NCBI RefSeq assembly: GCF_054482525.1
Contig: NZ_CM137006.1
Reading direction: 5' to 3' (one strand)
Length of the DNA: 64,000 nt
In this document: positions 24,301 to 64,000 of the stretch, piece after piece
Layout: the number at the start of each line of letters is the position of its first letter
How positions within the stretch are numbered: the first letter of the stretch is position 1
The notes under the pieces: generated by a model
Seen by the model: the letters and a program-made list of their open reading frames with translations, nothing else
The model's database searches: none
Told to the model about the DNA's origin: nothing
Program-made: the position numbers and the translations under genes

Positions 24301-25091
24301 CGCAGTCGAACGTCAAAGGGGGTAACACAATGTGCATGGTTTAATAATGGCTGAAAAGTAATGTGTATGCTTATTCTGTGATAAGTGCAATCGAACGAGA
24401 TATATTGCATGGCAATAAACATATCCACGGCAAATTCTAGTCCGTAGACATAGACAATTTCATCCATGAGTTCAGGGCATTCGTCCCAGAATTTACGTGA
24501 AACCAGAACAACCTGTACAGCCAACGCAGCAGGAGAAAGTGGACCATTAGCGAGAGCTTCATTGATATTCTGCTGCCAGTTAGCAGAACATGCACTGAAA
24601 TCGTATGTTGTTATTTTTCCTGATAGATTATGAATATCCTGACCTAAATTCATAAGGAGGCTGTCTTGTGGTTCGCTTACAGCATCCCCAGGAAAACGTC
24701 GGGAAGGTAAGGCCTCCTGAGACTTTTTCTCCGATAGATGGATAGTGGAATCATCTGTCAGCCACGGGCATGGTGTCTCAGCAGGTTCAGCAACCATACT
24801 TTGGTCAAATACGACTGTGGTTTCTGCCACGCCAGTTGTATCTACTTCGATCGTTTCTATTTTGATTGCGGGTTGGGATGGCGAAGATAATTCTTCCACA
24901 TACCCCTTCTTCACCTTCTCCGCAATCAGCTTCAGTCCCGCTTTTTCCGCCGCTGCTGCATCCGCAAAGCTTTTTACCTGGTTTTGCCCTTTGGTGCCAA
25001 CTTTTCCCCAACAGATATGCAACTCGTTTCCCTGTTGCTCCACCGCCCAGAATTTATGTGATTTTTCGTCCTGAAAGATAAAGTGCCTCAT
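21342..25091 (-). CDS. molR: Intact MolR: N-terminal WGR domain plus DUF4132 region (1249 aa)
   Basis: N-terminal FWAVEQQGNELHICWGKVGTKGQ is WGR-like; remainder is paralogous to YehI; uninterrupted here. Confidence 0.8.
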   Translation of the reverse strand: MRHFIFQDEKSHKFWAVEQQGNELHICWGKVGTKGQNQVKSFADAAAAEKAGLKLIAEKVKKGYVEELSSPSQPAIKIETIEVDTTGVAETTVVFDQSMVAEPAETPCPWLTDDSTIHLSEKKSQEALPSRRFPGDAVSEPQDSLLMNLGQDIHNLSGKITTYDFSACSANWQQNINEALANGPLSPAALAVQVVLVSRKFWDECPELMDEIVYVYGLEFAVDMFIAMQYISFDCTYHRISIHITFQPLLNHAHCVTPFDVRLRKHLALAEETLWQRCVDKFITALPDIPPVQQPMVALMLPERPEIAEEIARRLLEQKNIQTVEWLKLVVQESSLLKALESYCAYDLFNDYYHGCIWNVTVLQEQGIAGIARFAPYAYADLCGSILAEINHPQALMLLIRVSGKTKRCHERMTKACAAFPHTALAALAELLAQKEENSWRIMLMTMLISQPALAEQVTPWLSTPAVAVLKACLQQLTQPSNHACADLLPAVLVSPPWLSKKKKSVIPVLDLTPLSLESCCTLTETAEKEIHARHRWHAHQIDIGQKEDIQNYLARLGFNRWNNGQYMKAPDAAIDLWQRGHYSALISEFKTFWHSYQREWQLYMLATLPIEKTAQAWNVLSKEPHVGVEFVMTHLQLTGLQGFIHSFSRYPQEALPVAQYFAAIELAPLIARAFNKLKTLRQDARTWLLKYPEHAITGLLPSALGKSGEAQDNARAALRMLTENGHQPLLQEIARRYNQPEVTDAVNALLALDPLDNHPTKIPTLPAFYQPSLWNRPVLKASAQSLPDSALQHLGEMLRFHQEEALYPGLLQVKDACTADSLAEFAWDLFTAWQTAGAPSKESWAFTALGVLGNDDAARKLTPLIRAWPGESQHKRATVGLDILAAIGSDIALMQLNGIAQKLKFKALQERAKEKIADIAESRELTVAELEDRLAPDLGLDDNGSLLLDFGPRQFTVSFDETLKPFVRDVSGSRLKDLPKPNKSDDESQANDAVNRYKLLKKDARTVAAQQVARLESAMCLRRRWSPENFQLFLVEHPLVRHLTRRLIWGVYSAENELLACFRVAEDNSYSTADDDLFTPPEGDISVGIPHVLEISPTDAAAFGQLFADYELLPPFRQLDRNSYALTETERNASELIRWAGRKCPSGRVMGLANKGWIKGTPLDAGWIGWMIKPLGRWSLIMEIDEGFAVGMSPAELSAEQILSKLWLWEGKAESYGWRSNSTQEAQLSVLDAITASELINDIEALFE

Positions 25092-36142: not shown

Positions 36143-36224
36143 CAACCAAACGACTCGGGGTGCCCTTCTGCGTGAAGGCTGAGAAATACCCGTATCACCT
36201 GATCTGGATAATGCCAGCGTAGGG
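36143..36224 (+). repeat. attL-like direct repeat: orphan copy of the 5' 82 nt of the thiM TPP-riboswitch leader
   Basis: 82/82 identity with 44023-44104, checked by eye. Confidence 0.85.
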
Positions 36225-36307
36225 GGCCAAAATAGTCTTGAAAATTATGTGGTTGTATCTCTTTTTGACCATAAATCATGCTGTTAAGGTACAAAAAGGG
36301 GTCGTTT

Positions 36308-37615
36308 ATGAGGTCAAGAACTCTCCCATACACATTTCAGCGAAACGGTAATTACTATCTACAAATCCGGCTTTCGGATGGTCGGATATACAAAAAATCA
36401 CTTTTTACTGACAGTTATCGCGAAGCATCGGCGTTGATGATTGGCCTTACTCCGCACATTCCTTTCGTTAAATCACTCGCTACTCCGTTGCCGCAATTTA
36501 ATAAGTTTGTTTCAAACTTGATCGCTTCGTCACGTAACGTAATGATTCCGTTGCCACTCCCTCAGCAATTGAACAATATTTCTAAAGAAGTTTTGCAGCT
36601 TCAACCACCAGCCAAACCGGAAAAGGTACTAACACTTGCTGATGCGTGGGCTATGTACAAGGAGGAAAGAGGTCGAAATTGGACAAAATCGATCTCAATA
36701 GCAAATGAGCGTTATATGGAGGTATTGCTTGTTGTCTTGGGAAAAGAAACAGACGTAACGGCAATCACCAAACAAGATATTAAGCGAGTAATGGAAACTG
36801 TCGAAAACTTACCAAAGCGTGTAGTGCAACCGTATAGGTCAATGACTATTCAGCAACTAATCGAATGTGATGATGTGCTGCCAGAGGATTTAGTTGGTGC
36901 TGAGGCTGTACATAAGCACCTTAAAATCTACAAATCGTTATTCAAAACATTTCTGACTGAAAACAAAGATATTCTATCTAAGTCTCCGACTGATGGAATA
37001 GTAGCGGCACCATCCAAAGCTAGGTTTGGTGCATACAGTGCAGCAGAAATGAAAAAATTTGTAGGATGGGCACTAAAGCAGCCTGATGGATGGCAGAAGT
37101 GGATCACTTTGTTGTTGGCGTACACAGGAGCCAGAAGAGGTGAGATTGCTAAACTGGAGAAGTCGCAGATCAAATTTGATGAAGATAGCCAGCGGCACTA
37201 TCTTCTGATCGCGGAAAGAAGGCTGGGTAAAACTGAGAATGCTACAAGACAGGTAGTGATTCATCCCAAACTGATTGAGTGGGGGTTTCTGGATTTTGTT
37301 AACCGCCAATGGAAAGAGAAAATCTTTTCGGAAGTCTCAGGTCGAAATATGTCAAAGATAGGTAAAGTTCTTTCAGATGTTCGTGATCAGCTTGATATTC
37401 CTTATCTTGATGATTATGGGCAGCGGCGCTTGGTGCATAGTTTCCGGCATACTATGATTTCTACTTGTTTAGCTGGTTGGGTGAGTAATTTGGCGCATCT
37501 GCAACAGGTGGTAGGTCATGAAAAGAGTGGAGTAGGGATTACCCAGCGTTATCTGCACACATTCCCACTTTCCACCGTTTGTTATGTGATCGATGGTCTT
37601 TGTTGGGAGACTTAG
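36308..37615 (+). CDS. Tyrosine recombinase/integrase
   Basis: Catalytic residues in TGARRGE, HSFRHT and ITQRYLH; start may be 36278 or 36308. Confidence 0.85.
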   Translation: MRSRTLPYTFQRNGNYYLQIRLSDGRIYKKSLFTDSYREASALMIGLTPHIPFVKSLATPLPQFNKFVSNLIASSRNVMIPLPLPQQLNNISKEVLQLQPPAKPEKVLTLADAWAMYKEERGRNWTKSISIANERYMEVLLVVLGKETDVTAITKQDIKRVMETVENLPKRVVQPYRSMTIQQLIECDDVLPEDLVGAEAVHKHLKIYKSLFKTFLTENKDILSKSPTDGIVAAPSKARFGAYSAAEMKKFVGWALKQPDGWQKWITLLLAYTGARRGEIAKLEKSQIKFDEDSQRHYLLIAERRLGKTENATRQVVIHPKLIEWGFLDFVNRQWKEKIFSEVSGRNMSKIGKVLSDVRDQLDIPYLDDYGQRRLVHSFRHTMISTCLAGWVSNLAHLQQVVGHEKSGVGITQRYLHTFPLSTVCYVIDGLCWET

Positions 37616-37743
37616 TTATTCGTGTATCCTTCTTAGTGTATAACCAGCTAATAATTTGTAGATTTTTATTGTCTGAGATCAAAAATTTTCACAACTAATT
37701 TACAATAATAACTTAAGATGAATTTAGGCTTAGTGAGTCTTCT

Positions 37744-38469
37744 ATGGTTAAAAATTTAGGCAAAAAATACAAGTATGGCGATCAACCGATAAGAGCTATT
37801 ACCATACAGATAATTGCTAATCAGTTTGGTGGGGCTGCAACGGCTAAGCAGGTAGATGATTATCTTAGAAAGCTATTTCCATCTTATAAAGATAATACTT
37901 GGCTCAATTTAATTGCTAATACAGTTAATTGTAAGCGGAGCTACTGGAGTTTCAACAAAACTGCCCGACGAACTGATGATGTAACTCATCGGCATCATAA
38001 GTATGACCGATTGTTCAAGCGTGGAAATATTTTTGAAATCTATCAACCATCTGTGCACGGTATTTGGGAATTATACCAGGATTTAGAAGGGATGTGGCGT
38101 TATCGTCAAGTAAAATCGGTTTTCGAAGAAGCTGTTGAGACGGCTGCAAAATTATCTTCAGTGGAACGAAAGCAAATTTTAGCGACAGAAAGTAAAATCC
38201 CGGAACTAATCGAAGTAACAACACGAGTTTATAAACGAAGCCCATATGTAGTTGCTGAAGTTCTTTTGAGAGCAAATGGAAAATGTCAATATTGTAAGCG
38301 AGATGCTCCTTTTCTAAAGGAAGATGGTACTCCATTTCTAGAAGTTCATCATATTGAGTGGCTTTCAAAGGGGGGGGAGGACTCTGTGGAAAATGCTATT
38401 GCATTATGTCCTAATTGCCATAGACAAGCCCATTATGGCGATCTGACATTACTACCTGTTAATAAATAG
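37744..38469 (+). CDS. HNH nuclease with McrA-like C-terminal domain and unrecognised N-terminal domain (candidate type IV restriction enzyme)
   Basis: C-terminus CQYCKRDAPFLKEDGTPFLEVHHIEWLSKGGEDSVENAIALCPNCHRQAHYG closely parallels the McrA HNH motif as I recall it. Confidence 0.7.
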   Translation: MVKNLGKKYKYGDQPIRAITIQIIANQFGGAATAKQVDDYLRKLFPSYKDNTWLNLIANTVNCKRSYWSFNKTARRTDDVTHRHHKYDRLFKRGNIFEIYQPSVHGIWELYQDLEGMWRYRQVKSVFEEAVETAAKLSSVERKQILATESKIPELIEVTTRVYKRSPYVVAEVLLRANGKCQYCKRDAPFLKEDGTPFLEVHHIEWLSKGGEDSVENAIALCPNCHRQAHYGDLTLLPVNK

Positions 38470-38546
38470 GCTTGATGAAAGTTCTATTTCTATATTTTTC
38501 AATATACAAATTTCCCCAAAAACGGCGTGAATATCACGCCGATCAA

Positions 38547-38894
38547 TCATACTTCAGAACACATACTCAATGTGTAAACAGCCATCTCCCCATCGGGATT
38601 AGAAGGGCGTAATACAAATATCGGTATACTGCCATTGTCAATGTATGTGGCTGCAACCCCTCCGTCAGGTGTAGCATACATCTTTGCGATGCTTTTTTGA
38701 CCTACAAAATCAAGTCTCCAAGTTTTACCGCCAAGATTTATGGTCATTTTTTTATCTTGTATATCAAAAGTTGAATCTACAGAAACTTTCTGACTTCCCG
38801 AGTCAATATGACCTTCCTGTATTGCTTTACAGGAAAAGGTTGTGGCGTGGCCCATCACTGGAATTAACAAAGCGGCAAATACTAGTTTTTTCAT
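38547..38894 (-). CDS. Small secreted protein, possibly lipoprotein (about 115 aa)
   Basis: Signal peptide MKKLVFAALLIPVMGHA; no recognisable domain. Confidence 0.5.
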   Translation of the reverse strand: MKKLVFAALLIPVMGHATTFSCKAIQEGHIDSGSQKVSVDSTFDIQDKKMTINLGGKTWRLDFVGQKSIAKMYATPDGGVAATYIDNGSIPIFVLRPSNPDGEMAVYTLSMCSEV

Positions 38895-39004
38895 TTGTCT
38901 CCCTTGGTGTGTCAAATGGATGGTGATGCTAATAATACATGATTGATTCAAAATGTCACGATTAGTGCGTGGTTAATTGGTGCGTCAAATTGCATCTTTG
39001 TGCC

Positions 39005-39469
39005 ATGCGAAAGAATCTGAGATACCTTTTTGGACAACGAGTAAAAGAGTTCCGTATAGCTATTGGCTTAAGCCAAGAGGCCTTTGCAGATCGGTGTGGT
39101 TTTGCACGTAGTTATATGAGTCGAATTGAGCGTGGTTGCTCTAATGCATCTCTTGATGCAATTGAGGTTCTGGCTGACGCTTTGCGTATTGAGCCTTGGC
39201 AGTTACTGGCTTCTGATTCAAGGAAACCTGATGATCAGGAGGTACTTGTTCCTTATGCTGCAGATGGGTCGTGTTTTCATCCAGGATTGGCAAGTACTCG
39301 CGATGGTTCGTTTAGAGTAGGGGAAAAATCAGCCCAGAAACGTTTCAGTTCGTTCAATGAAGCTCTCGAATACCTTCGTGGAATGGAAACCGCGAAGTGG
39401 CGTAGGCCTAATGCTAGTGGTAATTGGGGAATTGTATCTGCGGTTAAATGGGATCGACTGAATCAATAA
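39005..39469 (+). CDS. XRE-family HTH protein with about 80-aa C-terminal domain of unknown function
   Basis: N-terminal HTH (LSQEAFADRCGFARSYMSRIERG); start placed at MRKNLRYL. Confidence 0.65.
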   Translation: MRKNLRYLFGQRVKEFRIAIGLSQEAFADRCGFARSYMSRIERGCSNASLDAIEVLADALRIEPWQLLASDSRKPDDQEVLVPYAADGSCFHPGLASTRDGSFRVGEKSAQKRFSSFNEALEYLRGMETAKWRRPNASGNWGIVSAVKWDRLNQ

Positions 39470-39635
39470 GATATCAGTAATTTTCGGGCCACTCCACAAG
39501 GCAATAAGTGGCTTAGTGGTGATTATCGAAGGGGAATACAAGCGAGCACCTAGGCACCATTGCAAGAACCGCTCAACGCTGAGATCAGCAAGCCCCGATT
39601 TTTGCCGACCGTCCCTGTCAAATATCAAGGAGGCA

Positions 39636-40187
39636 TTACGCCACCTGCTCTTTCTTGATACGTTGCACCGTCTGCGTGCTGACACTGAAATCTTTTGCTA
39701 CGCTCCGAATTGAGCCACCATTCGCGAGAGCGGCAGCAATTCCCGCTCGATCAATTGCTTTTCCATTACCACGTTTTGCTATACGTCCAGCGGCCTTGGC
39801 TGCGGCGATCCCTTCACGTTGACGCTCAAGCATCATTTCACGTTCCATTTGTGCCACTGCTGCAAGAACTGTGAGCATCATATTCCCTGCGGGAGAGTTC
39901 TTTCCTGTCTTAAAGTCTTCTTTATGGAAATGCACAGACACGCCGCGCTTTGTTAATTGCTCTACAGTTGCCAGAAGGTCGGCTGTATTACGACAAAGGC
40001 GATCAATACTATGGACGTGTAACACGTCACCCTCCCGCACATAGTTCATCATTGCCTCAAACTGTGGGCGCTGAGTGTTCTTGCCTGACGCTTTATCTTC
40101 AAAGACTTTATCAAGAGTTACTCCTGCTAATTGACGGTCTGTGTTTTGTTGCACAGTCGATACCCTAATGTATCCAATATTAGCCAT
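39636..40187 (-). CDS. Serine recombinase (resolvase/invertase family)
   Basis: N-terminal IGYIRVSTVQQNTDRQ with catalytic Ser; C-terminal HTH. Confidence 0.85.
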   Translation of the reverse strand: MANIGYIRVSTVQQNTDRQLAGVTLDKVFEDKASGKNTQRPQFEAMMNYVREGDVLHVHSIDRLCRNTADLLATVEQLTKRGVSVHFHKEDFKTGKNSPAGNMMLTVLAAVAQMEREMMLERQREGIAAAKAAGRIAKRGNGKAIDRAGIAAALANGGSIRSVAKDFSVSTQTVQRIKKEQVA

Positions 40188-40674
40188 CTTCTTTTTTCTT
40201 CTGTATTGATTTGTGTGTAGTGATTATTGAACGTGTTGATTAGGTGTGTAAAGTACTTTTTTCACTACGAAATTCGAAGTTTTTTAGTGTGGTGATTTAG
40301 CCTGCCTTATCACTACACTTCTTGCATGAGAATCATGTAGTTACATTTTGGTAAAATTAGCAAGCTATTAAATTGTGTGTTTATTTTGAAAAAATAATTT
40401 TTGTTGCATTAAAGAAAACTTGTTCGACAAATAATAGGTTGATTTTTGATCAATAATTTCTGATAGTGCTCTGTAAGCCGCATTACACAAGGCGCAGCGA
40501 AAGTGATGTAAAAGTGAAGAAAGCTAACATTGCACTTTTAAACTACTTTTCATTGAATTTTTTAGTATGGAATTACACAGGAATAAGTTAGGGATATTCT
40601 ATGATTTACACAGGGAATATAGGGGGATTATGGTATTACACAGAGTGAGTGCTATGTGATGATTGGTAGTAACG

Positions 40675-40782
40675 GTAGGTCACTGTGAACTAGGGGGGTA
40701 GGTCACTGTGAACTAGGGGGGTAGGTCACTGTGAGCTAGGGGGTAGGTCACTGTGAACTAGGGGGTAGGTCACTGTGAACTA
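40675..40782. repeat. Iteron array: five tandem 22-23 bp repeats (gtaggtcactgtgaactaggggg) next to an AT-rich tract
   Basis: Contiguous direct repeats with no spacers, followed by ataagactataataagactattaataaaacta. Confidence 0.8.
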
Positions 40783-41883
40783 CAATAAGACTATAATAAG
40801 ACTATTAATAAAACTATATTAGATTATTAATTAGATCATAATAATAATATTCTTTATATCTATATATATATGATCTTTTGCCTTCCGGCGTTAGCTTCAC
40901 TCTCTGGCAAGCAGCCTTACTCCGCTACCTTTCGGGCTACGTTGGCTGGCCCGTTCCGCTCACACCGAAAGCAAAGCGTTACTTTCTTCGTGTAACTTCG
41001 TTGGCGGTAACGCCCACGAAGGAATACTATTGCGCTGTGCGCAGTAAGAGTAATCACCTAACCAATCATCTGATTGCTTACGTGTTAACTCTCTCTAACT
41101 CTTAATTACCCTCCTACATTTAATAACTCTCGTTATTCTCTGTAGTTGTGTAATTACTCGAAGAGAGAGCGGCTAAAGCTCAATTACACTCTGCTTTCCT
41201 CGTGTAATTTCACTAAGCCTCAATACAATTTCACTTCCTACATTCTGTAGTCGTGTAATTGTTTTCGGTGGAAAAGCCAGAGGCGACACCGAAAGAGAAT
41301 TCTGATCTTATTAATCTTATCTATCTTAGTTATCTTACTTACTTTATCTACTTTATTATTAATAATAGCTTTATAAGCTCTCTGTGTAGCTCTCTGACGC
41401 AAGAAACAGAGTTCAGGAAGGGAATCACCTTAGAAAAGTGTTCTTTGCGTCATAATGTGTTTTATGAAGGATTCAGAGGTGTTTCATAACAGAGATGTAT
41501 AGAGGATACTTTAGGTAATTAAAAATAAGGGGTCTAAATGCTTCTCTAACAGCATTAAGCAGGGTAGAGAATGGAAACCGCTTTGCCTACATATATAAAC
41601 TCACTACAGGGCTTTACAGAGCGTTTTATAAAGTGACTCTCTGTTTTATATCTACCATCACCTTTTCATATACCTAACAAATACAAAATAAGCCCCTTAA
41701 ATAAGCCTCTGGCGAGCTAAACAGCCATTACATAAGAGAATGTATTGCTTTTATCAAAACCTCGTTAGAACGCGTTTTAGAGCGTTTTAGCGGATAATGA
41801 AGAATAGCACTACACAGGAGAGCACGAATTGCTAAGAAAAAATGTAACTACATGAAAAAGATCAGATTTTTTGTGAAAAGGTA

Positions 41884-41912
41884 TTGACAAACGTCTCTTT
41901 CTGTGCAATAAT
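41884..41912 (+). promoter_or_regulatory. Candidate sigma70 promoter for the downstream operon
   Basis: TTGACA, 17-bp spacer, then TGcAATAAT extended -10. Confidence 0.45.
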
Positions 41913-42038
41913 AGGTATTAGAGGGACAGGAATAGATTCTTATCCTCTAAATAATTAAACCAATGCACCGCACTTTGAAGCCCAAGGCTTGTAAGGTGTG
42001 TTTTTTCTTTTAACCAAATAGAATAAGGAGGCTAATTA

Positions 42039-42227
42039 ATGAAATATTTTACTCCACAGGATGTAGTAGAAGCCTGGAAACGTGGTGAGATCAACCGCTT
42101 TAAAGTAAGGATGTATAGAAACACCGCTCGCCGTTGTGGTTATCCAGAGCGTGAAAAATGTTTTGACGATGCACTAAAAATTATTGATGAACTGCGTAAA
42201 GCTGAGAAAGAAGCAGAGAAAAAATAA
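42039..42227 (+). CDS. Small hypothetical protein (62 aa)
   Basis: Strong SD aggagg; first gene of a tightly packed operon. Confidence 0.55.
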   Translation: MKYFTPQDVVEAWKRGEINRFKVRMYRNTARRCGYPEREKCFDDALKIIDELRKAEKEAEKK

Positions 42228-42249
42228 TAGACAAGAGAAGGAGAAAACT

Positions 42250-42417
42250 ATGAGCGAAACTAAGAAACCAATTCCGCGCACTTACCTACACGTTGACCCT
42301 GAAATCTTCAAGGTTTTATTTGCTGAAGCCAAGAAAAGGCAAATTATGGTCAGTGATTTGATGTTAGAAATCATTACTGAAGCAGCAGAGAACATCAAAC
42401 AAAAAAAGGGTAAGTGA
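42250..42417 (+). CDS. Putative ribbon-helix-helix DNA-binding protein (55 aa)
   Basis: SD aaggag; beta-strand RTYLHVDPEIF followed by two helices, typical of CopG/Arc-type RHH. Confidence 0.55.
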   Translation: MSETKKPIPRTYLHVDPEIFKVLFAEAKKRQIMVSDLMLEIITEAAENIKQKKGK

Positions 42418-42468
42418 TCCTCATTCACTTTAGTAGCGCATTAAGCGTGATTTATAAGGAGATTTTTA

Positions 42469-43158
42469 ATGATTAATCAACTAACTTTTACAAAACACTA
42501 TGACACGTTTGATAATGTATCAAAGATTTATTCTGATAAATTCCCTCAAGGAAAAGATTTAGATCTATTACATATTGTGCTTTATTTTCGATTCCTTAGT
42601 TATCAGGAAAACAACCTTAATTGTTATGAAAGTCACGAAACATTAGCTAAGATTTTTAAGTCTTCAGCGTCAACAATTAAACGTAAGATAAACGATCTTA
42701 AAGAGATGGGATTATTAGAAACATCCCCACATCCTGATCCGTATATTTCATCTTTGATTTACAATGCTCTCCCTCTCACAGATGCACATATTACTCCCCC
42801 AGGAGAATCATCACTCTCTGATCTTTCTGAGGCAGAAGAAGCACAGGAACAACCTAAAGGCCATAAACAGCCTTCTTTTGATGTTCTTGATGATTGGGAT
42901 ACGCCTTTACCCTGGGAGACGGAAGAAACACCTGTTTCATCAAGTGAAAAAGTAGCTAATGATAATGAGGAGGATGTGTTAGAGAATTTTGCCTCTCTTA
43001 TCATCCAGGAGAAACACACAAGAACAGGAGGAGCATCATTTATTGAGTTTGCAAATTCACTAGCTTGTAGATACGGGCTAAAACGACCAAATGGTATTGA
43101 GGCATATTTTTCTAAGAATTACCCAAATATATACGATGACTTTGATATTCCATTTTAA
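42469..43158 (+). CDS. HTH protein with acidic linker and SSB-like C-terminal tail (229 aa); possible replication or recruitment protein
   Basis: SD aaggag; HTH-like ETLAKIFKSSASTIKRKINDLKEMGLLE; acidic low-complexity middle; C-terminus YDDFDIPF resembles the E. coli SSB tip DFDDDIPF. Confidence 0.6.
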   Translation: MINQLTFTKHYDTFDNVSKIYSDKFPQGKDLDLLHIVLYFRFLSYQENNLNCYESHETLAKIFKSSASTIKRKINDLKEMGLLETSPHPDPYISSLIYNALPLTDAHITPPGESSLSDLSEAEEAQEQPKGHKQPSFDVLDDWDTPLPWETEETPVSSSEKVANDNEEDVLENFASLIIQEKHTRTGGASFIEFANSLACRYGLKRPNGIEAYFSKNYPNIYDDFDIPF

Positions 43159-43169
43159 TAAGGAGGGTT

Positions 43170-43415
43170 ATGATTCAATATTTAGTAAAAAATCAAGTAG
43201 ACAGAATTCAGTGTAATGACACAGGAAAACGCATCTACGAGACACTTGTTTACCTCTATAAAGGAAAGCCAACACCGCTAAAATATAGCGATGTGTTACA
43301 TCGAGCAGGTTGCTCTGAGTCAGGTTTAAAATTCTGGCTGAAACAGCTATCAAATTTCGGTGTTATTGAAATGAAAGAGCTGTCTTTTTCTACATTCAAC
43401 CTCAAGAAGTTATAG
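43170..43415 (+). CDS. Small winged-helix-like protein (81 aa)
   Basis: SD aaggagg; last gene of the operon. Confidence 0.5.
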   Translation: MIQYLVKNQVDRIQCNDTGKRIYETLVYLYKGKPTPLKYSDVLHRAGCSESGLKFWLKQLSNFGVIEMKELSFSTFNLKKL

Positions 43416-43580
43416 AAAATAGAATTCATCTATTCCACGCTCTAATTCTATTTCTCTGTTTAATATAAAAGGAAAACATTATTATGGTAATAGCTATGTG
43501 GTGGTTGTTGTTTTTTATGCTCGTAGAAACATATGCAAGTAAGTCTGGAAAACAAAAATAATATATTGATGATTTGTTTT

Positions 43581-43820
43581 TTATAACTTCGTGGTGTCAA
43601 GTCCAGCAGCTTTGAGTCGCTCGGTAAGATTTCTCATTTTGCTGAACTCTGTACCAAAGCTGGCTTTAAGTCCTACACCTTCACAAAACTCTTTTGCCGT
43701 AACCTTTTTCAGATGGTCAGCATATTTGATCATCTGGAGGTGCATTTCCATCGTTTGGCTATTTCGTGGTGCGCTGCTAATGGCTTGCTTAATGTTCTCG
43801 TAGATCTGGGTTTCTGTCAT
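43581..43820 (-). CDS. Small helical hypothetical protein (79 aa), convergent with the operon
   Basis: ORF only; low-GC context. Confidence 0.45.
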   Translation of the reverse strand: MTETQIYENIKQAISSAPRNSQTMEMHLQMIKYADHLKKVTAKEFCEGVGLKASFGTEFSKMRNLTERLKAAGLDTTKL

Positions 43821-44022
43821 TTTTTATCTCACCTATCAAATTTAGATAAATAATATAAATTAGCAAATTAAGATAATCAATAGTTTTTATCATCTGAATG
43901 ATAGATGTTAAATGTTTCTTTTTCATTTCTGATATGGGGTACAAAATGGGGTACACAGAGAAGAAGCAATTAATGGAGGCGAGCTTGCATCTGCAAGCCA
44001 CTTCCCCTAAGCTGGCACAAAA

Positions 44023-44166
44023 TATAGAGATTCAACCAAACGACTCGGGGTGCCCTTCTGCGTGAAGGCTGAGAAATACCCGTATCACCTGATCTGGATA
44101 ATGCCAGCGTAGGGAAGTCACGGACCACCAGGTCATTGCTTCTTCACGTTATGGCAGGAGCAAACT
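44023..44166 (+). promoter_or_regulatory. TPP riboswitch (thi-box) in the thiM leader
   Basis: Contains ctgagaaatacccgtatcacctgatctggataatgccagcgtagggaa immediately upstream of the thiM start codon. Confidence 0.9.
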
Positions 44167-58513: not shown

Positions 58514-59413
58514 TTAACGCAACAATGGGCAATCTGGTGGTAATCGACAACGCAACGCCGCCGGAAGTATTTCAATATGAAAGTTTTGCCCACTCAACGG
58601 TTCGCCATCAAGATTAAAAGTGATTTCGTGTGGGGCTTGTATATCAAACCACGACGAAGCACCTTCGATAATATTCGGGTTATCTTCGTCAGATTTTAAG
58701 GTTGATACGAGAGCTGGAAGAATTTCATCGCCGGTAAAAATGCGCAGTTGCAGCAGGCCATCGTTAATTAACGCGTTCGGGCACAATTGCTGACCGCCAC
58801 CGGCCTGACGCCCGTTACCAATACCAATGACCAGGGCGTCACCTTGCCAGTGAAAGTTTTCACCGCGGATCTCACAACGGTCCGGTTGCAGAGTATCCAT
58901 GCGCATTAAGCCATGAATGATGTAAGAGACGCCACCCAGCGCGGCTTTTAATTTTTCCGGCGTTTCTGTGGTAATACGCGTCCCAAATCCGCCTGTCGCC
59001 ATATTAATAAAACAGGTTTGTTTATTGACCTGCGCCATATCTATCGCAATGGCGTTACCGGCAATTGCCAGTTTCAGCGCCTTATCCAGTGCCTCAGGAA
59101 TCCCTACACTGGTGGCAAAATCATTGGCGGTTCCTAATGGTAAAATTCCCAGCGCGGGTATGTCATCCCCCTCACACTGAATCAACGCCGTAGAAACTTC
59201 ATTAATGGTGCCATCGCCACCACCGGCAATCACCGTTGCGACGCCCAACTTCCGTGCCTCCTCTACATATCGTGCGGCATCGCCTTTCTCCCAGGTGACC
59301 CGCACATGGATCGTCATTCCTTCCTCACGCAACAGCATAATTGCTTCGCGCAAGGGTAGATTGTCAGTACTTTTGCCATTAAGAATCAGTAAGCTGGCGG
59401 GAAATTCTGCCAT
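58514..59413 (-). CDS. yegS: Lipid kinase YegS (DAGK-catalytic family)
   Basis: 299 aa; GGDGT motif. Confidence 0.9.
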
Positions 59414-59827
59414 GATCGTATGTGCCTTTATGATTGGTCTGTAGACAGTGTAGAGCAGAAAACAAAAGGTGGAGTCAGAACAGGATGAAAATCGGAGGAT
59501 AAAAAGTCAGTTCAAGTATGGAGGATTCAGTGGTTACCACCAGGAGCTTGCAATGGGAACATCGAATATTAACGGTAGCCACCAGTAAATTTCAAAAAAG
59601 AGCAAATACCTAATATTCAACTAAACAGTGGCATCTTCAATATCTTATTCTAAATATATTAAAGCCCTCATGGGGATACCTGGGCAGGGCTTCATGTTTG
59701 TAATTCCTACTTATGTAGGAAATGTTGTACAGAACATTTATTATAATCCTATTCAATTATAATAATCATGCCATTATTATATTTTAACACCAGAGCGTGT
59801 CGTTGGTATTTAATGGGGGAAGGTGAG

Positions 59828-60145
59828 ATGAAAAAGATAGCTGCTATATCATTAATTAGTGTTTTTCTTATGTCTGGGTGTGCTGTACATAATGATGAGA
59901 CAAGTATCGGTAAATTTGGTCTTGCATATAAAAGTAATATTCAGCGTAAACTCGATAACCAATACTACACCGAAGCCGAAGCTTCTTTAGCCAGGGGCAG
60001 AATTTCTGGTGCAGAAAATATAGTAAAAAATGATGCAGCTCATTTCTGTGTTACTCAGGGCAAAAAAATGCAGATAGTTGACCTGAAGACAGAAGGTGCA
60101 GGATTACATGGCGTCGCTCGTCTGACATTCAAATGTGGAGAGTGA
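59828..60145 (+). CDS. yegR: Small lipoprotein YegR
   Basis: Start placed at MKKIAAISLISVFLMSGC giving 105 aa with lipobox. Confidence 0.75.
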   Translation: MKKIAAISLISVFLMSGCAVHNDETSIGKFGLAYKSNIQRKLDNQYYTEAEASLARGRISGAENIVKNDAAHFCVTQGKKMQIVDLKTEGAGLHGVARLTFKCGE

Positions 60146-60315
60146 GAATATTTTTTGGTAAGCGTCAAACATCCGCGTTCTGGTTGTGCTTAGCCGGAAC
60201 CTGTGCGAGCACGATGCCGTTACGTGAAAGGCATCGTGCTATGAAGGGAGATTCTATCGATGTGGTCAATGGAAGACGGTCACCTGGGATCAATCCGTCT
60301 CTATGGTTTATGCAC

Positions 60316-60342
60316 AAAAAATAAGCCCGTGTAAGGGAGATT
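60316..60342. repeat. P2-type attachment core (27 bp), left junction of the prophage
   Basis: aaaaaataagcccgtgtaagggagatt matches the phage P2 att core as I recall it; the integrase gene follows. Confidence 0.7.
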
Positions 60343-60421
60343 TAGGGTGTCACCAGTAGGGGCTTTCAACGGTACAATGCGGGTTTGAGCGGCATAAATT
60401 ACCACTGAAAGCCCTTAAACG

Positions 60422-61435
60422 TTACTCTACTGTGGACACTGTGTGGACACTCTCGGCCTCAGTACCACCTCTTAGCGGATTAAGAGAAATGGCGTCCTGA
60501 AGGTACTCTGGCGCAAAATGAGCGTAAACCATAGTTTGTTCAATCCGCGTGTGACCTAGTATCCGTTGTAGCGTGATAATACTTCCTCCATTAATCATGA
60601 AATGAGTGGCAAAGCTGTGCCTTAGTGCATGTGTGGCTTGCCCCATTGGCAAATCCGGTTTTATTGCTTTCATTGTTCGTCTGAAGCGAGGGTAATCAGC
60701 ATCAGGGAATAAAAAACCTCGTTTGTTATCCGCGATCATTTTGGCAACAGCCTCTGAGATCGGGACGGTGCGTGGTTTGTTTGTTTTCGTTTTAACAAAC
60801 GTGACGCGGTTATGGATGATATTTTCTGCTTTCAAACGAGCTGCTTCTCCCCAACGTGCGCCTGTACTCAGGCAAAGAATCGCAATCTTTTTGTTGTCGC
60901 CGTCAAGTGCTGCAAGCAGTAAGGCAATTTCTTCCTGTGTGAGATAGCCTGTTTCTGGTTTTTCCTCCTTAAGCCTCTTTGTCCCTCTGATAGGGTGCTC
61001 ACCAAAGAATAACTCCGCTTCAATCAGGGCTGTAAACATGCCGCTAATACATGTTAAATCACGATTGATACTCGAAGGTTTAATACCCTGACTTCTTCGG
61101 GTGGCGCAGTACTGGCTGATAAGGGATTTCGTGATTTGAAATGCGCATGGGTCATTCGTTATTTTTGTGAAGATTTCAATTTTTCCAAGATTAGATTTCC
61201 CATGCTCTTCGTGTTTACCCTTTAAATCCCACCAGATCTGTGTCAGTTCCGACAGACGTCGTTTGTCTGTTGGTTTTGATAGCCATTCTTTATTGTGGTG
61301 GTTGTACAACGTGTATTTTTCGAAAGCGACAGCTTCGCTTTTCTTATCAAACTTCCTACGGATGCGTTTTCCGTTACGTCCAGTAGGGCGGATGTCCACT
61401 TCATATCGACCATCATCGAGTTTTTTGATTGCCAT
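60422..61435 (-). CDS. int: P2-type tyrosine integrase (337 aa)
   Basis: Catalytic motifs HALRHSFAT and MVYAHF; adjacent to the att core. Confidence 0.9.
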   Translation of the reverse strand: MAIKKLDDGRYEVDIRPTGRNGKRIRRKFDKKSEAVAFEKYTLYNHHNKEWLSKPTDKRRLSELTQIWWDLKGKHEEHGKSNLGKIEIFTKITNDPCAFQITKSLISQYCATRRSQGIKPSSINRDLTCISGMFTALIEAELFFGEHPIRGTKRLKEEKPETGYLTQEEIALLLAALDGDNKKIAILCLSTGARWGEAARLKAENIIHNRVTFVKTKTNKPRTVPISEAVAKMIADNKRGFLFPDADYPRFRRTMKAIKPDLPMGQATHALRHSFATHFMINGGSIITLQRILGHTRIEQTMVYAHFAPEYLQDAISLNPLRGGTEAESVHTVSTVE

Positions 61436-61550
61436 CAGAAAACCCTCCGAGTGGTACTTTTTTTTGCTACTACTAATCGCTTTTTTCGTGGTGGCTGAAA
61501 TTTAGCCACCAATAGTAGGCACTTGTGATGAATATATTCACGATAAATTG

Positions 61551-61850
61551 TTAACCAGTCTTTTGACCGGAGTGGGGCGACGTTGTTTCGTTTTGCCCAA
61601 AGTGTGCGAGAGCGGGCGCAATTTGCCCGGCTTCTGGAGCTACCTGATCAGTCATGAACCACAAAGTATATTTAGTAAATCTGGGATGTTGTAAGACCTT
61701 CATTATGGCTTCAACTCCAGCGTTTTTTGACCGGCTCTCATAGCTCGAAAGTGAGCTGTAGGCTACACCAGTTAATTCACTGAATTCTTTACGGTTTAAC
61801 CTTTCAGATTCACGGATTAGCTTCAACTTCTCCGAAACGTCTATTGACAT
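61551..61850 (-). CDS. P2 C-type immunity repressor (99 aa)
   Basis: Start placed at MSIDVSEKLK; HTH; divergent from cox. Confidence 0.75.
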   Translation of the reverse strand: MSIDVSEKLKLIRESERLNRKEFSELTGVAYSSLSSYESRSKNAGVEAIMKVLQHPRFTKYTLWFMTDQVAPEAGQIAPALAHFGQNETTSPHSGQKTG

Positions 61851-61971
61851 AATTACTCCGATTGCGTAATTTCTTGCTGATAGTGTGAAATATTGTGCTT
61901 CTGGAGTTATCCTTTTAGGCAATAATTAGCCATTAGGAGCCATTAGAAGCACTAAGGGAGAATCGTAGCAG

Positions 61972-62247
61972 ATGAATAGACAGCTTGTAAGCGTGACTGA
62001 TGCCGTGCCTTATCAGGAGTTTGCAAAACTCATTGGTAAAACTCCAAGAGCTGTAAGAGGCATGATTGAGAAAGGGAAATTACCAGTTATTGAGATTACT
62101 GACCCTCAGTCAGTATCGGGGCGTGCTGGTGAATATTGGGTATACCTTCCGGCATGGAATAACGGACTAAAACTGGCTTATGAAAGCCGTCCTAAAGAAA
62201 TTCGTGACGGCTGGTTGATGTGGTTAGGTCTCGGTGAACCACGTTAA
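61972..62247 (+). CDS. cox: P2 Cox-like excisionase/repressor (91 aa)
   Basis: Size and position; first gene of the early operon. Confidence 0.8.
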   Translation: MNRQLVSVTDAVPYQEFAKLIGKTPRAVRGMIEKGKLPVIEITDPQSVSGRAGEYWVYLPAWNNGLKLAYESRPKEIRDGWLMWLGLGEPR

Positions 62248-62257
62248 GGAGAACCGT

Positions 62258-62428
62258 ATGAATGAGCCTCGTTGTATTGCTCAGTTATTGCGTAACGAAA
62301 GCCCTAGGGCGATTGACTTCACCATCACCCACGGTAAGGGGCGTAAGGGAATCATTATCCGCACCAAAAAACAGAGTCCGTTAAAAAAGGCTCTGACCTT
62401 TCTGAAAAGCCGGAGGGTCTGGAAATGA
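62258..62428 (+). CDS. P2 orf78-like small protein
   Basis: SD aaggag then ATG at 62258; position in the early operon. Confidence 0.55.
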   Translation: MNEPRCIAQLLRNESPRAIDFTITHGKGRKGIIIRTKKQSPLKKALTFLKSRRVWK

Positions 62429-62925
62429 CAGTGATGACGCTCAATCTCGTTGAAAAACAGCCAGCAGCTATGCGCCGGATAATTGGTAAGCATCTGGCCG
62501 TCCCTCGCTGGCAGGAGACATGCGATTATTATAATCAGATGATGGAACGCGAACGGCTAACGGTTTGCTTCCATGCGCAGTTAAAACAGCGTCACGCAAC
62601 GATGCGTTTTGAAGAAATGAACGACGTCGAACGTGAACGGCTGGTTTGTGCAATTGATGAACTGCGTGGGGCATTCTCAAAACGCCGTCAGGTCGGTGCA
62701 AGTGAGTATGCATATATTAGCTTTTTAACTGTCAGTCAGCGCCGTACTTTATTTATGCATGCCGGATTGACTGAAAAAGAATTCAACCAGCCATACTGGC
62801 GAATTAATGAAGAATCATGTTACTGGCGTGATGCCTTATTCCGTGCATTACGTGAATTATTCAGCCTGTTTGAGTATGCACCGACAATTCTGACGTCGGT
62901 AAAACCAGAGCAATATCTGCATTAA
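62425..62925 (+). CDS. P2 B-like replication protein (166 aa)
   Basis: Size and position match P2 gene B. Confidence 0.75.
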   Translation: MTVMTLNLVEKQPAAMRRIIGKHLAVPRWQETCDYYNQMMERERLTVCFHAQLKQRHATMRFEEMNDVERERLVCAIDELRGAFSKRRQVGASEYAYISFLTVSQRRTLFMHAGLTEKEFNQPYWRINEESCYWRDALFRALRELFSLFEYAPTILTSVKPEQYLH

Positions 62926-62988
62926 GTAATTAACCAGAGTTTTTAACGCACTTAATTGTGCGGGGCTTCTTTTTGCCTGGAGAAAGTC

Positions 62989-63213
62989 ATGCATACAGTT
63001 TCTGAAAATCAGTGCGGTAAATACGCATTACTGCTGCAACAGGCCAGAACCGAAGCACAGGCCGACGCAGCGACGCGCTTTTCTTCTCATCTTGACGCCA
63101 TGATTCGCCACATCACAAAGGCGGAGTTATCCCGCGTAGAGATAGTCGAGCTGCTCAGTCAGGAGTCGGAAAAATTTCACAATATCGGATTGTCTCGCGG
63201 GGAGGTGCTTTGA
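62989..63213 (+). CDS. P2 orf80-like protein (74 aa)
   Basis: Position; start placed at MHTVSENQ. Confidence 0.55.
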
Positions 63214-63512
63214 TGTCCTGTTCTCATTCAGTTGTATTACTGAATAACGCCTTAAAAATCGCCGTTATGAAAAATGGCGATTTGTCTCTTATTCAACTTT
63301 GTCTTGATAAAGAAAAACGCGACATCACTGAATCTGTTATCGCGATTTATCAGAATGAATTAAACCTCCTGTCTGATGTGGTCAATTTACTTGTTAAACG
63401 CGCTGTATTCCACAAGCAAATTTCCTCAGTGGATGAACTGACAAAATTAACGACAGAACTTGCCAGTTATTGCGCTGATGTATCCAGGAAACTTAACGAT
63501 AAAAGGAGCTGA
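63210..63512 (+). CDS. P2 orf81-like protein (100 aa)
   Basis: Position; overlaps neighbouring stop/start. Confidence 0.55.
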
Positions 63513-63514
63513 TA

Positions 63515-63739
63515 ATGCCGGATAACGTAGATTTTATTCAGGAACAACAGGCTGAATTACTGGAGCGCCAGATTAACGCGGCAAGGGTAAAACATTGCGG
63601 TGCTTCTGCGCTGGTTTGCGAAGAGTGTGACGCGCCAATACCTGCTGCCCGTCGTGCGGCTTATCCGTCAGCCACGCGTTGTGTTTCCTGTCAGTCAGTC
63701 TTTGAAGCAAAAAACAAACATTACCGGAGAACGGCATGA
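63515..63739 (+). CDS. P2 orf82-like C4 zinc-finger protein (TraR/DksA-like), 74 aa
   Basis: CEECDAPIPAARRAAYPSATRCVSC zinc-finger motif. Confidence 0.6.
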   Translation: MPDNVDFIQEQQAELLERQINAARVKHCGASALVCEECDAPIPAARRAAYPSATRCVSCQSVFEAKNKHYRRTA

Positions 63740-64000
63740 GTATTCGTATTGAAATTGGCGAACGTTATGTCGTTACCAGTGACAGCTTTCAGTTTATTCT
63801 CCACGAGAAAAAGAGAGCGGAAAGCGGTAAAAACGCCGGTCAGGAATGGCTGTCGGTGGTTGGTTATTACCCGAAATTAAGCCAGCTCGTTTCCGGCCTG
63901 ATGCATCACGATATTCTGACCGGAAGCGCAAAGTCTTTTGCTGATTTAAACGTGCAGGTTGAGCAACTCAGCAAGCGTTGTTCAGAGGCTTTTGGCTCAT
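63736..64000 (+). CDS. P2 orf83-like protein, 3' end outside the window
   Basis: Hand-translated from ATG at 63736 (MSIRIEIGERYVV...); no stop before the window end. Confidence 0.5.
   Translation, partial: MSIRIEIGERYVVTSDSFQFILHEKKRAESGKNAGQEWLSVVGYYPKLSQLVSGLMHHDILTGSAKSFADLNVQVEQLSKRCSEAFGS

Follow-up and report, generated by a model that had tools for sequence, protein, structure and literature searches.

The left arm of a P2-family prophage adjoining yegR combines P2 integration functions with a non-P2 immunity module

The last 3.7 kb (positions 60316 to 64000) of a 64,000-nucleotide stretch of contig NZ_CM137006.1 (assembly GCF_054482525.1), here termed the window, almost certainly represents attL together with the arm for lysogeny and early replication of a temperate prophage of the P2 family (Peduovirus). 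The left junction and early-gene arm occupy the classic P2 site adjoining yegR and look intact as far as the window extends. P2 integration joined to non-P2 immunity is a form of mosaicism that P2-like coliphages are already known to show. The visible part amounts to 3.7 kb of an expected 31 to 34 kb, with attR, gene A (the start of which would be at approximately 64001), cos, the lysis genes, ogr, and all structural genes lying beyond the window.

A 27-bp att core, AAAAAATAAGCCCGTGTAAGGGAGATT, was found on the plus strand at 60316 to 60342 and matches the annotated attP core of P2 (AF063097, positions 24356 to 24382) at 27 of 27 positions, with no mismatches. In Escherichia coli SCU-102 the corresponding locus is unoccupied, carrying yegR, the core, cyaR, and yegQ with no phage. 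Positions 1 to 60342 of the window share 99.99% identity with this strain (100.0% over host DNA from 39001 to 60342), and the match breaks off exactly at 60342, the last core base and the last base common to attL and the empty attB of SCU-102. The 170-bp host B arm between yegR and the core (60146 to 60315) does not differ from that of the empty-site strain and contains neither D' nor ogr, and int follows the core. Within this arm, a 15-nt run, TCGATGTGGTCAATG (approximately 60256 to 60270), exactly matches the P-arm Int site of P2. In a four-way alignment, the window passes from the host B arm to the P2 P' arm at the core, which is the true host-phage junction, and the earlier claim of a P2-like left arm integrated next to yegR is borne out. 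The preliminary description had allowed that the core match might be coincidental, in which case the phage genes would have arrived differently, for example by homologous recombination or at another insertion point. No evidence supporting this was found and its probability is negligible; the match is the only one within the window when up to three mismatches are allowed, 0 of 100 dinucleotide-shuffled sequences contained the 27-mer, and P2-identical P' arm sites flank the core. Coincidence was rejected on the position of the SCU-102 breakpoint.

At the same locus, K-12 has the order yegR, D' (yegZ, a fragment of D), ogrK, core, and cyaR, annotated as the cryptic prophage PR-X, in agreement with the earlier remark that only ogrK/yegZ remnants persist there. 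PR-X has its att core and its location between yegR and cyaR in common with the window. However, what remains in K-12 is the right end of the prophage alone (D', ogr, P arm, and core), whereas the window holds the left end (core, P' arm, and int onwards). A PR-X-type remnant was rejected for the window, as the distance from yegR to the core is the 170 bp of the empty-site strain and int comes next.

The P' arm (60343 to 60456, plus strand) matches P2 with 100% identity over both the annotated Cox-binding region, which maps to approximately 60359 to 60432, and the Int P' arm site, which maps to approximately 60430 to 60456. Two exact copies of the arm-type repeat TGTGGACA are located at 60431 to 60438 and 60442 to 60449; the arm-site consensus for P2 Int is tgTGGaCa (PMC3448106). 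These sites accompany a P2-type tyrosine integrase, with int (60422 to 61435, minus strand) encoding 337 amino acids that are 100% identical to P2 Int and contain the Pfam domains Int_N and Phage_integrase. As far as can be read from the sequence, the prophage has exactly the P2 specificity of integration, with Int, core, and P' arm all 100% identical. By established P2 biology, the prophage would have been inserted through Int-catalyzed site-specific recombination between phage attP and locI, the favored site in E. coli, located between yegR and yegQ/trhP, where the 27-bp core would overlap the 3' terminator of the small RNA gene cyaR. In the K-12 annotation, the end of cyaR falls inside the core region. 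A search of 59400 to 64000 with Rfam found no RNA families.

Nine open reading frames follow the core, colinear with P2 (int, C, cox, orf78, B, and orf80 to orf83), and none contains an internal stop. The preliminary description had considered this set canonical in order and size, which holds for the order and for most of the sizes; the exceptions are orf81, which is one codon shorter, and orf83, which is interrupted by the end of the window. Early operon synteny is retained from cox through orf78 (62258 to 62428; 56 amino acids, 100% identical to P2 Orf78), the replication gene B (62425 to 62925; 166 amino acids, 98.8% identical to P2 gpB), orf80 (62989 to 63213; 74 amino acids, DUF2732, 98.7%), orf81 (63213 to 63512; DUF5405, 88%, with 99 amino acids in place of the 100 in P2), and orf82 (63515 to 63739; 74 amino acids, a DksA/TraR C4 zinc finger protein, 100%) to orf83 (63736 to 64000; DUF5405, 98.9% over the first 88 of 91 codons), all on the plus strand. 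In the gap between B and orf80, a terminator-like hairpin with a T run (62947 to 62972, plus strand) occupies the same position as the putative terminator annotated in P2. Pfam matches over the left arm comprised integrase, HTH_3, Phage_Cox, DUF2732, DUF5405, and zf-dskA_traR, and PF26815 (Phage_RepB) is recorded on homologues of B. As in P2, replication would be driven by B together with A.

Prophages sharing the site between yegR and trhP and having left arms of 99.8% identity were found in E. coli strains ECE313 (NZ_CP196255.1), GZ2408C (NZ_CM172481.1), and LR-71-1; these strains differ in their host backbones, which are approximately 98% identical to that of the window. The prophages of ECE313 and GZ2408C are full length (approximately 31 to 33 kb), bounded by yegR and trhP, and end in D, ogr, core, and trhP. 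These relatives bear on whether the visible arm belongs to a P2-like remnant that is defective or truncated, exceeding the K-12 one in size but no longer functional as a phage, a reading that we consider possible but rather unlikely. It is consistent with the window stopping before gene A, with the decay seen at the same locus in K-12, and with the damaged GZ2408C copy, in which A carries a frameshift and the hotspot contains IS1 and IS200-family elements. Against it, all nine visible open reading frames are intact, att, P' arm, and Int show no difference from P2, and the ECE313 prophage has no gene flagged as a pseudogene or as interrupted. Furthermore, SCU-102 differs by only approximately 7 mismatches over 60 kb and its site is cleanly unoccupied, implying that integration was very recent or that a prophage was excised precisely.

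DNA identity to P2 is 95 to 100% outside positions 61630 to 62110 and falls to approximately 50% inside them, thereby delimiting the immunity module (approximately 61630 to 62110). The switch is of the P2 type, with a short C gene divergent from cox, and not of the 186 type with CI and Apl. The immunity repressor encoded by C (61551 to 61850, minus strand; 99 amino acids) shares 65% identity with P2 C; the N-terminal helix-turn-helix part has diverged and the C-terminal third is conserved. The protein nonetheless matches the solved P2 C structures (2XCJ and 2L49) end to end (E = 2.5e-39 for 2XCJ). Cox (61972 to 62247, plus strand; 91 amino acids), the Pc repressor and excision directionality factor, is 84% identical to P2 Cox, with the substitutions in the N-terminal half, and matches PF10743 and the solved P2 Cox structure 4LHF end to end. 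Between the two genes, the Pe/Pc switch spacer (61851 to 61971; 121 bp) is approximately 48% identical to that of P2 and 7 bp longer. If the switch works as in P2, C and int would be transcribed leftwards from Pc, and C would repress the rightward early promoter Pe and so maintain lysogeny. In established P2 biology, P2-type C is not RecA-cleavable, so neither UV nor mitomycin would be expected to induce the prophage. The product of cox, which opens the Pe operon, would repress Pc and direct excision by binding the P' arm. Cox has an altered N-terminal half beside an unaltered P2-type binding region at att, which makes excision proficiency an assumption.

P2 immunity class I is characterized by the P2 C protein and by the O1/O2 direct repeats GTTTAGAT, which flank the Pe -10 element. 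This half-site is absent from both strands of 60301 to 64000, with both P2 copies missing, and the window prophage falls outside class I on both counts. The identities of 65% for C, 84% for Cox, and approximately 50% for the module, with the loss of GTTTAGAT, lead us to predict that the prophage is heteroimmune to P2. In the N-terminal part of C, the operators, and the N-terminal part of Cox, the window prophage departs from P2, and its immunity module is another allele. The preliminary description had made no mention of the non-P2 type of C, cox, and the operator region. That the element might be P2 itself, of immunity class I, and not a heteroimmune relative is very improbable. Int, Orf78, and Orf82 show 100% identity with their P2 counterparts and most of the arm is at 95 to 100%, but megablast splits the P2 alignment into two segments that together cover 92% of the query, and P2 sensu stricto was rejected at the sequence level because C, spacer, and operators differ. 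The published immunity classes (I to X) were reportedly defined by Karlsson in 2006 (J Bacteriol), and a 2011 follow-up lists the classes with no sequences in its text.

Several elements of the switch region could be placed. The Pe -35 hexamer TTGACA is conserved at 61844 to 61849, within the start of C, and two GCCATTAG repeats set 10 bp apart (approximately 61930 to 61947) line up with the annotated Pc region of P2. Neither Pe nor Pc was picked up by a consensus promoter scan, and the single product of a repeat finder run for operators was an imperfect 11-nt repeat that extends into C. When the region was compared with that of a Klebsiella phage having a 78% identical C, conservation was confined to the Pe -35 element and the Pc/Cox-box side and did not include the operator positions. 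A 6-9-6 inverted repeat, AATTAC-N9-GTAATT, spans 61851 to 61871, between the -35 and presumed -10 elements of Pe; as a guess only, it may be a candidate operator.

Among the closest known elements is Escherichia phage vB_EcoM-720R8 (ON470606.1), which covers 100% of 60316 to 64000 at 98.3% identity, encodes a C repressor 100% identical to that of the window, and has the same arrangement and integration adjoining yegR; it differs in orf81 (303 nt, compared with 300 nt in the window). Deposited as a partial genome, this record is itself a prophage with yegR, yegS, and gatR in its flank. P2 (AF063097/NC_001895, at locI) likewise shares the gene order from int to orf83. A P2-like prophage left arm at yegR is already known and is common in E. 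coli: 738 of 5,426 complete genomes (approximately 14%) harbor a left arm of the P2 type in this position, counted as genomes holding at least 80% of a query of yegR plus the left arm. Among the complete-genome matches listed, the left arm is present at 99.3 to 99.8% identity, with at least 61 records at 99% or more. Megablast against the 5,426 genomes returned none identical across the junction, the best values being 98.7% over the junction with the arm and 99.8% over the arm by itself. Of 20 contigs with the exact orf81 or YegR protein, none exceeded 98.2% identity over the last 14 kb of the window. Elsewhere in the window, a plasmid search with 40188 to 42038 gave partial matches only.

The variable cargo hotspots had been placed outside the window by the preliminary description, and their positions in related prophages with matching left arms agree: one separates A from the portal gene, and the other separates the tail-fiber genes from the sheath genes. 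The first, the A-to-Q hotspot described in PMC9122126, would begin approximately 2.3 kb past the end of the window. ECE313 carries a reverse transcriptase as cargo, and GZ2408C an AAA ATPase, a DUF4435 protein, and a restriction endonuclease. At least five different cargos were seen among prophages with 99.8% left arms or the exact orf81 protein of the window, and the cargo of the window prophage is therefore not predictable from its left arm. We regard it as improbable that either hotspot holds an uncharacterized anti-phage system or that the immunity type has an operator layout unlike the P2 direct repeats.

P2-like prophages at the yegR site, mosaic immunity modules, and defense-gene hotspots have already been documented (PMC3448106, PMC9122126), with the cargo hotspots of P2-like phages published by Rousset in 2022, and the finding matters little beyond correct annotation. 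Over the stretch seen, the source strain and SCU-102 form a natural near-isogenic lysogen/nonlysogen pair, since a shared backbone with approximately 7 mismatches in 60 kb is followed by presence of the prophage in one and its absence in the other. This pair could serve for testing lysogenic conversion or a cargo defense phenotype.

The window contains a single copy of the 27-bp sequence AAAAAATAAGCCCGTGTAAGGGAGATT, located at 60316 to 60342 (plus strand) and identical (27/27, 0 mismatches) to the annotated P2 attP core (AF063097, 24356 to 24382), as the preliminary description had stated for the left end of this P2-like prophage. No matches to the 27-mer were obtained in 100 dinucleotide-preserving shuffles with up to three mismatches permitted. 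Escherichia coli SCU-102 (NZ_CP051753.1), in which the site is empty, matched a 25-kb query ending at 64000 with 100.0% identity over 39001 to 60342, the match breaking off exactly where the core ends; in SCU-102, ACACAGGCTAAGGAGG (cyaR) comes immediately after the core and is followed by yegQ/trhP, with no phage genes at the site. When the window was aligned jointly with SCU-102, K-12, and P2, it followed the host until the core and the phage-side P' arm of P2 thereafter. Positions 60316 to 60495, which take in the annotated P2 Cox-binding region and Int P' arm site, were 100% identical to P2, and the P' arm carried two exact copies of the arm-type repeat TGTGGACA at 60431 and 60442 (the arm-type Int site consensus is tgTGGaCa [PMC3448106]). 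A coincidental core match, the alternative raised in the preliminary description, is ruled out by the SCU-102 breakpoint, the shuffles, and the switch to the P2 P' arm in the alignment; the core is a real host-phage junction.

The P2 att core also overlaps, on the opposite strand, the 3' terminator of the small RNA gene cyaR (60316 to 60342 compared with K-12 cyaR). At attL only the 27-nt core portion of this terminator is kept and the other hairpin arm is absent; the intact cyaR of the lysogen should lie at attR, beyond the window.

The nine open reading frames to the right of the core were compared individually with P2 proteins, and none contained internal stops. On the minus strand, int (60422 to 61435; 337 amino acids [aa]) was 100% identical to its P2 counterpart and C (61551 to 61850; 99 aa) 65% identical. 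These were followed by cox (61972 to 62247; 91 aa, 84%), orf78 (62258 to 62428; 56 aa, 100%), B (62425 to 62925; 166 aa, 98.8%), orf80 (62989 to 63213; 74 aa, 98.7%), orf81 (63213 to 63512; 99 aa compared with 100 in P2, 88%), orf82 (63515 to 63739; 74 aa, 100%), and orf83 (63736 to the window end; 88 of 91 codons, 98.9%). Gene order and sizes were thus canonical, as described, except that orf81 differs by one codon and orf83 is cut by the window end; gene A is expected to start at approximately 64001, outside the window. Pfam returned Int_N and Phage_integrase, HTH_3, Phage_Cox, DUF2732, DUF5405 (twice), and zf-dskA_traR, and full-length matches were found between C and the P2 C structures 2XCJ and 2L49 and between Cox and 4LHF.

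Identity to P2 was 95 to 100% throughout the left arm except at approximately 61630 to 62110, where it was approximately 50%. Within this block fall the N-terminal two-thirds of C (the immunity repressor), the N-terminal half of cox, and the C-cox spacer between them (121 bp, compared with 114 bp in P2). The P2 operator half-site GTTTAGAT, present as O1 and O2 in P2, was absent from both strands, while the −35 sequence of Pe (TTGACA, 61844 to 61849) was kept. As judged from sequence, the phage therefore combines P2 integration specificity with a different immunity allele. Such mosaicism is known in P2-like coliphages, with immunity classes I to VII and the later additions VIII to X (PMC3448106). 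The C protein was identical to that of ON470606.1 (vB_EcoM-720R8), itself a prophage flanked by yegR, yegS, and gatR; the next closest C proteins, from Klebsiella phages, shared 78% identity. Within the 99 aa of C, Pfam identified only a helix-turn-helix (HTH) domain, with no peptidase domain found. SOS induction would not be expected, by analogy with P2, and the inducibility test previously proposed should therefore be read in that light.

At the same locus in MG1655, yegR is followed by yegZ (a D-fragment pseudogene), ogrK, and a core overlapping the cyaR 3' end, with the yegZ-ogrK region annotated as cryptic prophage PR-X. The alignment showed that K-12 retains the host-side B arm and approximately the first 18 nt of the left core copy, joined to the D fragment and followed by ogr, the P arm, a full core, and cyaR; annotation and alignment thus bear out the claim that K-12 carries only ogrK/yegZ remnants. 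The B arm (60242 to 60315) itself resembles a phage P arm, as its 15-nt run TCGATGTGGTCAATG equals the P2 Int P-arm site and contains the arm-type TGTGGTCA, and TGAAGGGAGATT (60242 to 60253) is similar to the core 3' end. Since this sequence is common to the empty-site strain and K-12, the "unoccupied" attB may itself be the attR left behind by an earlier P2-like prophage.

Among 5,426 complete E. coli genomes, 738 contained ≥80% of a query running from yegR through the left arm. Left-arm matches at ≥99% identity numbered 61 records, the best reaching 99.8% over all 3,658 bases. Two genomes among the close matches, ECE313 and GZ2408C, were inspected in full. The ECE313 prophage (approximately 31 kb, yegR to trhP) had no genes flagged as pseudogenes or interrupted and carried a reverse transcriptase gene between A and the portal gene. 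The GZ2408C prophage (approximately 33 kb) had a frameshifted A; between A and Q it encoded an AAA ATPase and a DUF4435 protein and contained insertions of IS1 and IS200-family elements, and between the tail-fiber assembly and sheath genes it encoded a restriction endonuclease. Further contigs, with either this left arm or an identical orf81 protein, contained, between A and Q, DUF676/CTD8 with MC4 and a 655-aa protein; a DNA methylase with HEPN and GmrSD_N; a methylase with HATPase_c_3; an AAA_13 protein; or an ASCH-domain gene only. The cargo is thus highly variable and not predictable from the left arm; the A-to-Q interval is known as a defense hotspot (Rousset et al. 2022, PMC9122126).

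Two further elements were observed in the window. A 7.9-kb island (36143 to 44114) of 36 to 45% GC, versus approximately 53% in its flanks, is bounded on each side by one copy of a perfect 82-bp direct repeat that corresponds to the 5' part of the thiM TPP riboswitch (Rfam TPP matches at 36146 to 36241 and 44036 to 44132). It encodes a tyrosine integrase (36308 to 37615), an HNH endonuclease (37744 to 38469), an HTH protein (39005 to 39469), a serine resolvase (39636 to 40187, minus strand), a 229-aa HTH_36 protein (42469 to 43158), and an HTH_73 protein (43581 to 43820, minus strand). The island is shared with SCU-102, other strains having GmrSD or DUF262 genes at the same spot, and it looks like an integrative element targeting the thiM riboswitch. 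Within it, 40188 to 42038 (1.85 kb; longest open reading frame ≤76 aa) contains five tandem 22- to 23-bp iterons (GGGGGTAGGTCACTGTGAACTA; 40671 to 40787) and, adjoining the resolvase gene, a perfect 17-nt inverted repeat (40333 to 40349 and 41839 to 41855) with 1,489 nt between copies. This segment may act as a replication origin or may be invertible; searching plasmids with it gave partial matches only. Two minus-strand OrzO-P antitoxin RNA matches (RF02083; 16247 to 16322 and 16858 to 16931, 92 and 90 bits) lie inside two imperfect direct repeats of approximately 500 bp with approximately 92% mutual identity; they mark the tandem type I toxin-antitoxin locus zor-orz, which in this window lies between yehI and yehL.

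By established P2 biology, Int would recombine attP with locI, the preferred E. coli site; C, transcribed from Pc along with int, would repress Pe and so keep lysogeny; Cox, from Pe, would repress Pc and direct excision at the P' arm; and B and A would replicate the genome. Window positions 1 to 60342 shared 99.99% identity with SCU-102 (approximately seven mismatches), which originated from a human rectal swab in California; the source strain is near-clonal with it over the visible 60-kb backbone, and the prophage difference begins at 60343. The region 60316 to 64000 is an ordinary, already known feature, correctly recognized in the preliminary description. The existence of a near-clonal relative with an empty site points to recent integration or precise excision, which favors a functional Int/att system but falls short of proving an intact phage.
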